Positions 61,058 through 63,897 of a stretch of DNA of 64,000 bases are shown here, piece by piece. Below the pieces are notes generated by a model that had not been told where the DNA came from, made no database searches, and saw only the letters and a list, made by a program, of their open reading frames with translations. The translations under genes and the position numbers were made by a program. Where the stretch lies: the sequence record MG589383. One strand, 5' to 3'. Every line of letters begins with the position of its first letter. The stretch's first letter is position 1. This DNA is from Shigella phage phi25-307.

Positions 61058-61552
61058 TCACAACTTATTAATATTTACTTTAATTCGCTTTCTTTTCTTG
61101 GAAGGAATTTGTTCTGGACCTTTATTTACGACTGCACCTGTAGTTGTTCCTGATGCAATAGCTTGAGGACTACCGCCTGAATCACCAGCAACCATATCCT
61201 CAAATAAAGGGAGTTCTTTAAATATTTCTTTCTGTTGTTCTTCTGTAATGTTATAGCGTGAAGCTACAGCACTCCAGGCAGACATCATTGAGGCCATTCC
61301 ATTAAGACCTGGAACAGTGCTCATCATTCGCTTCATTGAACGAACTGAAGCATGAAAAGGTGTATACGCAGCTTTCTCTTCGGGAGTAGAAGGACGTTTA
61401 AGAACACTTCCACGTTCATCGATGATTTTGGCTTCGTATGCTTTCCATTCGGTAAAAGGTTTTTGCATTAGTCGAATAAACTTATATGCATAAACAGAAT
61501 CTATTGCAGTGTTAATAATACCCATAGGTACCTCCTGAGTATATTTAATCAA
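61058..61552 (-). CDS. Hypothetical protein, 164 aa (61.1 position)
   Basis: ORF upstream of gene 61. Confidence 0.55.
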   Translation of the reverse strand: MIKYTQEVPMGIINTAIDSVYAYKFIRLMQKPFTEWKAYEAKIIDERGSVLKRPSTPEEKAAYTPFHASVRSMKRMMSTVPGLNGMASMMSAWSAVASRYNITEEQQKEIFKELPLFEDMVAGDSGGSPQAIASGTTTGAVVNKGPEQIPSKKRKRIKVNINKL

Positions 61553-61743: not shown

Positions 61744-62403
61744 TTAACCTCGATTCATAAATGCATTAAATATTTGGTCATCAACAGAAATTTCTAATTC
61801 GACTTCAATTGCTTCAGCCTTTTCTTCAGGTGGTAATTCGTATCCACACACTACAATTTTTTCATCAATATCAAAATATACAGAAGCAATATGATTAATG
61901 TTATTTTCGGTTAAGTCTAAATCAACATCAACATCTTTTTGACCTACACTTAAAGGATAACTAATACGGGTTATTTTATTATCTTTAACAAAGAGTCCAC
62001 CGACATACTCTGTACTACGTTTGAAGTTTACACGTTTCCGAAATGAAAGATATGATGCATCTTTACCATGAGCTCGGCTCATAGGACATAATGAATAGCT
62101 AGAATAAGAGATGTCAAATCCTACACCTTCAATATGAGCCAACGTGTCATGATTAAACCAATTATAATCATATGCCAAATCCATTATATTGTAATATGTG
62201 AAAGGCACCGGATTAACATCATACGTTGTACCTTTAAAATCTGCCCAGGCAACGATTTCGTTATCTTTAACAATTACAAAAATTACACCAATATGGTATC
62301 CGTTATTATTTTCATTCGGCGTTATATTATAACATTGTGCATTAGGAAATTTACCATATTTAAACGGCGCGTTTTTGTGCATGTAATAAATCATATTATT
62401 CAC
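61744..62403 (-). CDS. Hypothetical protein, 219 aa
   Basis: ORF in the 61-sp interval. Confidence 0.55.
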   Translation of the reverse strand: MNNMIYYMHKNAPFKYGKFPNAQCYNITPNENNNGYHIGVIFVIVKDNEIVAWADFKGTTYDVNPVPFTYYNIMDLAYDYNWFNHDTLAHIEGVGFDISYSSYSLCPMSRAHGKDASYLSFRKRVNFKRSTEYVGGLFVKDNKITRISYPLSVGQKDVDVDLDLTENNINHIASVYFDIDEKIVVCGYELPPEEKAEAIEVELEISVDDQIFNAFMNRG

Positions 62404-62689
62404 CTGTGATTTCGGTTACGATATCTTTGTTATCGAAATTAGGGTCACAATACAAAACATAATTGTACTGCATGATACCGCCAGACTTAAGTTGTTCAAC
62501 AACTTTATTAACCATATTAGGACGATCTCGTTTAGTGATGTTCATGATATCAGAGAAGATTTGTTGTTCAACATCTTCTTGATTTGCAGTCATTGACCAC
62601 TCACAGAGGTCTTTATCATAACCTGCCGTAACTGGAGCTGGTGCGCATGATACTGCAAGTAAGATTGCTGCCAATGATAACTTTTTCAT
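62396..62689 (-). CDS. sp: Spackle (Sp) periplasmic superinfection-exclusion protein, 97 aa
   Basis: Signal peptide MKKLSLAAILLAVSCAPAPVTA, then AGYDKDLCEWSMTA and MQYNYVLYCD matching remembered T4 Sp; same length (97 aa). Confidence 0.85.
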   Translation of the reverse strand: MKKLSLAAILLAVSCAPAPVTAGYDKDLCEWSMTANQEDVEQQIFSDIMNITKRDRPNMVNKVVEQLKSGGIMQYNYVLYCDPNFDNKDIVTEITGE

Positions 62690-62710: not shown

Positions 62711-62748
62711 ATAGGACTACTATACTATAGTCCATCTATAATGTAAAC
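62711..62748 (-). promoter_or_regulatory. PeSL-like early promoter cassette (family B)
   Basis: Minus strand GTTTACATTATAGATGGACTATAGTATAGTAGTCCTATC. Confidence 0.55.
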
Positions 62749-62752
62749 AAGT

Positions 62753-63001
62753 TTATTCTTTTTCGCGAATAATAATTACTTGTTGAGGCTGCTGAGCAGA
62801 TTTCTTTTCGGCAACGATAGACCAAATTAAAGTTCCAATCCAACCAACCATCGTCCAGTTAAAGAGTAAAGATACAAAGAAGATTGCTGTTGTGCTTTTT
62901 GTGCCACGAATAAGTGCGATTACCCAAGGCAACATGTAAATGATGATTGAACCAATACCTGCGATTAAAACTGCTACTGAACTAGCTACGAATAATTCCA
63001 T
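62753..63001 (-). CDS. Small inner-membrane protein with two predicted TM helices, 82 aa
   Basis: Hydrophobic segments LFVASSVAVLIAGIGSIIIYMLPWVIALI and AIFFVSLLFNWTMVGWIGTLIWSIV; has its own promoter (63029-63058) and SD. Confidence 0.6.
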   Translation of the reverse strand: MELFVASSVAVLIAGIGSIIIYMLPWVIALIRGTKSTTAIFFVSLLFNWTMVGWIGTLIWSIVAEKKSAQQPQQVIIIREKE

Positions 63002-63028
63002 GTTAATTTCCTCTTGATTTGTTATGTT

Positions 63029-63058
63029 TATAGTATCTTGGTTTAACTTTAGTGTAAA
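63029..63058 (-). promoter_or_regulatory. Early promoter (TTTACA, 17 nt, TACTAT) within TGGTTTA/TAAACCA inverted repeat
   Basis: Minus strand TGGTTTACACTAAAGTTAAACCAAGATACTAT. Confidence 0.5.
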
Positions 63059-63062
63059 CCAA

Positions 63063-63431
63063 TTAATTAAATTTGTTTAAACGTTCAATACACTGGATGT
63101 AGTTATTCGCGATTTGTTTCTGGGTAGGCTCTTTACCAGTTGTTTCAACATAGCGAATGAATGCGATTTCAGTAGCCTGTAAGCAATGTTCTTTAACGCG
63201 CTGTTCTTTTGACATAGCTACAGTATCAGAATCACGATAACGTTGAGCATGAGCATCAGCTTGAATCATTCGATTACCTACAGTAACCGGGTCTTCCACT
63301 TCAACTTTAGGTTGTTCATACTGTTTAACATTCGGATTGTAAATCAGTTGGCCGACGTTATTAGGAATAAAGCCATGGGCACCACATCCTGTTAATCCAA
63401 ATACCATTGCTAAAGCGATTAATTTTTTCAT
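63063..63431 (-). CDS. Predicted lipoprotein, 122 aa
   Basis: N-terminus MKKLIALAMVFGLTGCGAHG: signal peptide with lipobox LTGC. Confidence 0.6.
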   Translation of the reverse strand: MKKLIALAMVFGLTGCGAHGFIPNNVGQLIYNPNVKQYEQPKVEVEDPVTVGNRMIQADAHAQRYRDSDTVAMSKEQRVKEHCLQATEIAFIRYVETTGKEPTQKQIANNYIQCIERLNKFN

Positions 63432-63459: not shown

Positions 63460-63489
63460 ATAGTAACACAGTATGTGGTGCTTGTAAAC
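63460..63489 (-). promoter_or_regulatory. Early promoter (GTTTACA, 18 nt, TACTAT)
   Basis: Minus strand GTTTACAAGCACCACATACTGTGTTACTATC. Confidence 0.5.
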
Positions 63490-63491
63490 AG

Positions 63492-63704
63492 CTATTTTAA
63501 ACTTTTGCGAAATTTGCGTTTTTCTTGACGAATCTGTCGTTTAGTCGGACGTACAGCAAATTTAACGAAGTCCACTTTGCCGTGTGGAAACTTTTCAGAT
63601 GCTTCACAGTCCATCATTAGTTCCCATCCTTCCAGAATAAGAGCTTTCCATTGTGTAGTTGATGCAAATTCGTATGTTGATGGTTTAAACACAGTTGAAT
63701 ACAT
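63492..63704 (-). CDS. Hypothetical basic protein, 70 aa
   Basis: Track ORF 63492..63749 trimmed to the first ATG after the dmd stop. Confidence 0.45.
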   Translation of the reverse strand: MYSTVFKPSTYEFASTTQWKALILEGWELMMDCEASEKFPHGKVDFVKFAVRPTKRQIRQEKRKFRKSLK

Positions 63705-63705
63705 A

Positions 63706-63897
63706 TTATCCTCTGAAATCAGCTTCAAAAACTTTCTCGTCATTAACAAATGCTTTAACTAATGCTTTGTTCACTTCAGCAAGTTGTACCGCAACCCACT
63801 CGATTTCTTCACGGTCACCTGATAACATGATATCTTTAGTGAACGTATTATCATTTTTAAACCAGCCAATAAAAGTAACTTTAGTTAATTTGCTCAT
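63706..63897 (-). CDS. dmd: Dmd antitoxin-like protein (inhibitor of RnlA/LsoA-type toxins), 63 aa
   Basis: Start trimmed to MSKLTKV; FIGWFKN...FTK and AEVNKALVKAF match remembered T4 Dmd (60 aa). Confidence 0.8.
   Translation of the reverse strand: MSKLTKVTFIGWFKNDNTFTKDIMLSGDREEIEWVAVQLAEVNKALVKAFVNDEKVFEADFRG

Follow-up and report, generated by a model that had tools for sequence, protein, structure and literature searches.

The stretch of DNA between sp and 61.4 in Shigella phage phi25-307 raises the question of whether this phage has enlarged an exclusion locus with new envelope genes, or whether it simply carries at another position genes that T-even phages are known to have. The window analyzed here (the whole stretch of 64,000 nt from record MG589383) harbors two small ORFs at this point, both on the minus strand: one at 62753-63001, encoding 82 aa, and one at 63063-63431, encoding 122 aa. 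The initial annotation had described them as a lipoprotein (lipobox LTGC) paired with an 82-aa protein with two transmembrane (TM) helices next to sp, and this description holds, since both ORFs are present and rule-based lipobox and hydropathy calls agree with it. The gene order in the window is 61.4 - imm.1 - imm - sp, with dmd also upstream of imm.1, beyond the 61.4 side. The gap between sp and 61.4 measures 802 nt, as opposed to 60 nt in T4, and 61 nt separate the end of imm.1 from the start of imm. The features of the locus are as follows.

62396..62689, minus strand: sp (spackle), the downstream neighbor, for a periplasmic inhibitor of the gp5 tail lysozyme (Pfam T4_Spackle PF25676, E 1e-42)
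62719..62748, minus strand: early promoter match upstream of sp (GTTTACA, 17 nt, TATAGT; motif scan)
62753..63001, minus strand: imm, for a predicted inner-membrane superinfection-immunity protein of 82 aa (PF14373, phrog_1039, identity to T4 Imm, two hydrophobic segments; RB69p036)
63030..63059, minus strand: early promoter match upstream of imm (GTTTACA, 17 nt, TACTAT; motif scan)
63063..63431, minus strand: imm.1, for a predicted lipoprotein of 122 aa (PF17578 (DUF5481), phrog_1754, identity to T4 Imm.1; RB69p037)
63090..63185, minus strand: predicted C-terminal helical hairpin of Imm.1, with the conserved C83 and C114 as its limits (alignments and AlphaFold models)
63384..63431, minus strand: predicted signal peptide of Imm.1, with lipobox L-T-G-C (Cys16) and Gly at +2 (pattern match)
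63460..63489, minus strand: early promoter match upstream of imm.1 (GTTTACA, 17 nt, TACTAT; motif scan)
63492..63704, minus strand: 61.4 (DUF7279), the upstream neighbor and other border of the insertion point (ATG start as in the RB69 annotation)

The two proteins and their T4 counterparts

The sequence of the 82-aa protein identifies it as an orthologue of T4 Imm. It matches the PF14373 profile (Imm_superinfect) over positions 1-42 of 42, with 56.9 bits against a cut-off of 27.9, and phrog_1039, 'immunity to superinfection', with an E-value of 1.2e-30. In a full-length alignment with T4 Imm, 53 of 83 residues are identical (64%, E 4e-37). The two proteins are of nearly the same length (82 versus 83 aa) and have in common two hydrophobic segments, a conserved core and a C-terminal IIIREKE tail. 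The hydrophobic stretches of the window protein cover residues ~1-34 and 40-59, with R32-G-T-K35 between them (Kyte-Doolittle, 19-residue window); like the signal-peptide calls given below, these TM calls are rule-based, drawing on hydropathy and patterns.

The 122-aa protein, which starts MKKLIALAMVFGLTGC, can likewise be assigned to Imm.1. It scores 38 bits against PF17578 (DUF5481; cut-off 27), matches phrog_1754 (E 2.4e-28) and is 33% identical to T4 Imm.1 (E 3e-19); phage S143_2 encodes a protein 100% identical to it. The likeness to T4 Imm.1 includes length (122 versus 125 aa), a lipobox at the same residue, two C-terminal cysteines, the YNPNVK motif and a location directly upstream of imm in both phages, whereas an additional Cys pair near residues 32-44 of the T4 protein is missing from the one in the window. 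At 33% identity between the window and T4, Imm.1 is the most diverged protein of the neighborhood: the primase and the products of 61.2, sp, imm, 61.4 and dmd range from 56 to 74%, with Sp at 66%. Rough tblastn counts place homologues of Imm in 1039 phage records, some of them from non-T4-like phages, and homologues of Imm.1 in 655, and this spread identifies both as real genes rather than chance ORFs.

The N-terminus of Imm.1 (MKK-LIALAMVFG-LTGC) combines a basic n-region, a hydrophobic h-region and a lipobox of the form [LVI][ASTVI][GAS]C, in which Cys16 fits both the classical lipobox and a PROSITE PS51257-like pattern. By the +2 rule of E. coli, lipoproteins without Asp at +2 are sorted to the outer membrane. 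The residue at this position in the window protein is Gly; across the Imm.1-like family (see below) it is A in 13 cases, Q in 11, V in four, G in two and S in two, and never D, so that the rule predicts outer-membrane sorting for these lipoproteins. The N-terminus of Sp (SLAAILLAVSC, window 62645-62689) also fits the loose PROSITE-like lipobox pattern, and mature Sp is a soluble periplasmic protein of 75 aa (PMC7677548). A pattern match by itself is therefore no proof of lipidation, and false positives are possible.

Our search of the accessible literature for imm.1 or DUF5481 returned no study or experiment. A comparative paper from 2018 scores Imm.1 as absent in the RB69 group (PMC5885020). 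This is contradicted by the 33% homology reported here and by RB69's own annotation, and the absence call is probably an artefact of the orthology threshold, given that level of identity. As regards nomenclature, T4 imm.1 (L003:9637-10014, NP_049661.1) is called 'iduronate sulfatase' in RefSeq, and the name has been copied to other records, including that of ECML-134; it looks like an annotation error, to which a 125-aa lipoprotein lends no support. Many other genomes call imm.1 an 'immunity protein', through name carry-over only.

Position and promoters of the imm.1-imm pair

The 3-kb region is 98-99% identical at the DNA level to many RB69-like (Mosigvirus) genomes, and the RB69 reference carries imm (RB69p036) and imm.1 (RB69p037) at the same site. 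In T4, by contrast with the 61.4-imm.1-imm-sp arrangement of the window, the order is 43 - imm.1 - imm - 42. The comparison of the sp region across related T4-like genomes, suggested by the initial annotation, places the pair at this site in RB69-like phages and at 43/42 in T4. No imm is found in the RB69 42-43 interval, which is occupied by sugar-nucleotide and arabinose-5-phosphate-isomerase genes. A 36-aa ORF in this 42-43 gap, RB69p054 (L004:8924-9034), bears the annotation 'similar to T4 42-imm intercistronic region', and it probably represents a remnant or footprint of the ancestral imm site. Each phage record gives a single Imm match and a single Imm.1 match, and there is no second copy of imm within the window. 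Taken together, the single copies and the RB69 42-43 gap empty of imm imply that the complement of sp, imm and imm.1 is the same as in T4 and that position alone differs.

The reading we favor, with a probability of about 85%, is that the pair is the T-even imm.1-imm cassette standing at its RB69-like (Mosigvirus) site, 61.4/sp, instead of at 43/42. The two genes had been proposed to be extra ones that expand the island next to sp, and this does not stand: the same cassette exists in T4 at 43/42, it occurs once per record and it is annotated in RB69. The associated idea of an envelope-directed exclusion island survives insofar as an Imm orthologue beside Spackle does constitute an exclusion locus; its expansion falls away. 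Both imm and imm.1 are in fact already known, being annotated in RB69 and in ~150 related phage genomes, and the finding amounts to a re-discovery of annotated genes that adds nothing new on the window itself. A third location for the cassette was suggested by contig L008, in which a Frd3-like gene, imm.1 and imm follow one another, and was rejected once the contig proved to begin with sequence matching the 3' end of gene 43.

That the two genes would have early promoters of their own was also part of the initial annotation, and here the motif scan is in agreement. The consensus GTTTACA-N17-TAnnnT occurs at 13 sites in the window, against 0.3 expected, all of them on the minus strand, which is the coding strand. 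Three of the 13 stand directly upstream of imm.1, imm and sp, respectively, and at the level of consensus each of these genes is thus preceded by a predicted T4-type early promoter. The match before imm.1 aligns with the promoter that precedes T4 imm.1. T4 has this one early promoter before imm.1, with imm 11 nt later in an operon-like arrangement and no promoter equivalent between them, whereas in the window an extra match lies within the 61-nt gap between imm.1 and imm, and imm thus has its own.

Imm.1-like lipoproteins and their pairing with imm

By direct homology, Imm.1 appears to be a tiny family confined to phages, since a profile search over 1.84 billion representative proteins returned 7 matches. 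In other genera, the neighbors of imm that are missed by DUF5481 encode proteins of 136-167 aa with a lipobox at the same position, and they also keep the conserved Tyr (Y31 in the window protein) and the two C-terminal cysteines (C83 and C114). Profile searches link these proteins to Imm.1, and alignments bear out the common signature. The corresponding genes (L009:1011-1454, L010:1022-1462, L012:1026-1472, L013:1046-1492, L020:973-1431, L011:1852-2355, L017:1852-2352 and L014:3001-3498) come from Jiaodavirus, Moonvirus, Gelderlandvirus, Muldoonvirus, Serratia phage 4S, Gaprivervirus and Dhakavirus, and all are labelled as hypothetical proteins. The Pfam family DUF5481 thus looks too narrow for the Imm.1-like lipoproteins. 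Rough tblastn counts for four lipoprotein subtypes give 655, 145, 116 and 60 records, a sum of 976 in which overlaps are possible.

The lipobox Cys is kept in 32 of the 34 family members, and C83 and C114 show no or almost no variation (alignments A3, A4 and A6). In P0002, a metagenomic lineage, Phe replaces the lipobox Cys and a canonical signal-peptidase-I site (AHA|S) is found, which indicates that the family is consistently exported and that the lipid anchor is not universal. AlphaFold2 models of Imm.1 reach a mean pLDDT of 59.5 with a 5-sequence alignment and of 62.4 with a 26-sequence alignment. Residues 1-45 are modelled as disordered, and the sole confident part is a helical hairpin over residues 75-120 (pLDDT ~78-91), with both cysteines inside. 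For this low-confidence model, Foldseek returned no match with E below 4 against the PDB and, against BFVD, only Imm.1 itself and T4-type Imm.1. With no relatives outside the family, the fold offers no functional clue.

An Imm.1-like lipoprotein was found in every sampled T4-like lineage and adjoins imm in 12 of the 13, in one of two arrangements.

Imm.1-like gene directly upstream of imm: T4; the window and RB69; three metagenomic lineages; Jiaodavirus JD18; Moonvirus Merlin; a Gelderlandvirus; Muldoonvirus PS2; Serratia phage 4S
Imm.1-like gene just downstream of imm (flipped): Gaprivervirus VR25; Dhakavirus CLB_P2; the 173-kb metagenomic phage of contigs L014/L015

The intergenic gap is often 4-14 nt, which is operon-like. 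In Mosigvirus, imm and imm.1 have been relocated together. Strict adjacency of the two genes was nevertheless rejected, for in Providencia phage PSTRCR_121 (Gualtarvirus, MW385300) the Imm.1-like gene adjoins gene 43 and imm lies ~22 kb off, against sp. Adjacency is thus not obligatory. The PSTRCR_121 loci are L018:1519-1952 and L021:37341-37751, and the record labels all these genes 'hypothetical'. There, imm overlaps by 4 nt the start of the gene for an 80-aa Spackle homologue, near rI and tk; this homologue is 33% identical to the window Sp (E 6e-11). Placement of imm against sp is thus seen in two separate lineages, in Mosigvirus with imm.1 and in Gualtarvirus without it.

Possible roles of Imm.1

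In T4, Imm and Sp jointly give superinfection exclusion, with Sp inhibiting the gp5 lysozyme in the periplasm (PMC7677548); Imm resides in the inner membrane, and how it acts there is poorly understood (PMC6832632). T4 Spackle (Sp, gp61.3) resembles the imm pair in being early, exported and envelope-directed, and it is the partner of Imm (PMC7677548), but it shows no homology to imm or imm.1 and is a soluble periplasmic lysozyme inhibitor. By orthology and published T4 work, Imm would be produced immediately after infection and inserted in the inner membrane, where it would keep the DNA of T-even phages that arrive later out of the cytoplasm, and Sp in the periplasm would act on the gp5 lysozyme of the incoming tail. 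It is accordingly to T4 that we look for the function of the window Imm, which probably blocks DNA transfer across the inner membrane.

The role of Imm.1 is a more delicate matter. The protein would extend into the periplasm by way of a flexible linker of ~30 residues, with a small disulfide-stapled helical domain. We tentatively propose that Imm.1 might be an early, exported and probably outer-membrane-anchored lipoprotein that works with Imm in an accessory or specificity role. The evidence for this partnership consists of the conserved pairing, the joint relocation and the fast evolution of Imm.1. Lu and Henning are said to have found that cloned imm alone confers immunity, in which case Imm.1 would be non-essential for exclusion. 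A more far-reaching proposal, which we consider rather doubtful, is that the Imm.1-like lipoproteins make up one Straboviridae-wide family, reaching beyond DUF5481, and supply Imm with its missing partner in the outer membrane or periplasm. The tethered, disulfide-stapled and fast-evolving domain of Imm.1 would then recognize or intercept the tail tip, or position Imm at the injection site, and Imm.1 would set the range of excluded phages. Imm, Imm.1 and Sp would form a three-layer exclusion system, the genes of which selection would tend to cluster, as in Mosigvirus and Gualtarvirus.

The same observations may be explained without any partnership. Imm.1 could be unrelated to Imm, the two genes being neighbors through a shared and plastic 43-42 gap followed by a chance joint recombination into the Mosigvirus sp region, and it would then have some other early role in the envelope, such as acting against a host envelope defense or stabilizing the envelope. 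The separation of the genes in PSTRCR_121, where imm alone adjoins sp, and the separate promoter matches of the two genes in the window count against partnership and suit this explanation, as does the much faster evolution of Imm.1 (33% identity between T4 and the window, versus 64% for Imm). Against it, adjacency outlasts the Mosigvirus translocation, the flip in order seen in VR25, CLB_P2 and L014/L015, and the replacement of flanking genes, and in most lineages a mere 4-14 nt separate imm from imm.1. Chance neighborhood can be entertained as an explanation, albeit without conviction.

Two further explanations would give Imm.1 a different target. The initial annotation had raised receptor masking, in which Imm.1, like T5 Llp or Cor, would bind the periplasmic face of an outer-membrane receptor and block adsorption or triggering. 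A small early lipoprotein with predicted outer-membrane sorting is of the right kind for such a task, its fast evolution would suit a specificity determinant, and T5 Llp (PMC9586334) is a precedent. However, neither sequence nor fold similarity of Imm.1 to Llp or Cor was detected: Pfam and PHROGs give DUF5481 and phrog_1754 only, and the structure searches of PDB and BFVD give no match outside the Imm.1 family, which for a low-confidence model is a weak fold test. In addition, infected cells still adsorb secondary T-even phages, whose DNA is ejected into the periplasm, and lysis inhibition needs such adsorption, with which a masked receptor is in poor accord. Our analysis thus yields no positive support for receptor masking, and we deem it improbable. 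Considerably less credible still is a lysis-type module, with Imm and Imm.1 as an envelope-spanning pair that would work like a two-component spanin or like a holin and its regulator. The anatomy is alike, with a small inner-membrane protein and an outer-membrane lipoprotein, and a review states that Imm 'reportedly molecularly resembles a holin' (PMC6832632). But the promoter matches of both genes are of the early type, with no signal for late or lysis-timed expression, Pfam and PHROGs place neither protein in a spanin or holin family, and imm mutants are affected in exclusion and in the premature collapse of lysis inhibition rather than failing to lyse (PMC6832632).

Imm.1 makes a specific and cheaply testable candidate component of a T-even exclusion machinery in which the action of Imm is still poorly understood, a candidacy that derives from its company with imm in the sampled lineages, the joint move in Mosigvirus and the fastest evolution in the neighborhood. 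The specificity of exclusion is, in turn, relevant to the design of phage cocktails.

The genes beside the exclusion genes are concerned with counter-defense, and the interval from 61 to 41 is a dense cluster of early exclusion and anti-defense genes. Within it, 61.2 (window 61744-62403) matches the Pfam family AdfA (anti-DarT factor A) with an E-value of 2e-121, and dmd (window 63706-63897) is the antitoxin-like discriminator of mRNA degradation. The window has a single ORF of 164 aa at 61058-61552 (155 aa in the S143_2 annotation), where the RB69 reference has two, gp61.1 (RB69p031) and RB69ORF032c; this difference suggests either that the reference carries a frameshift or a split or that the window has a fusion.
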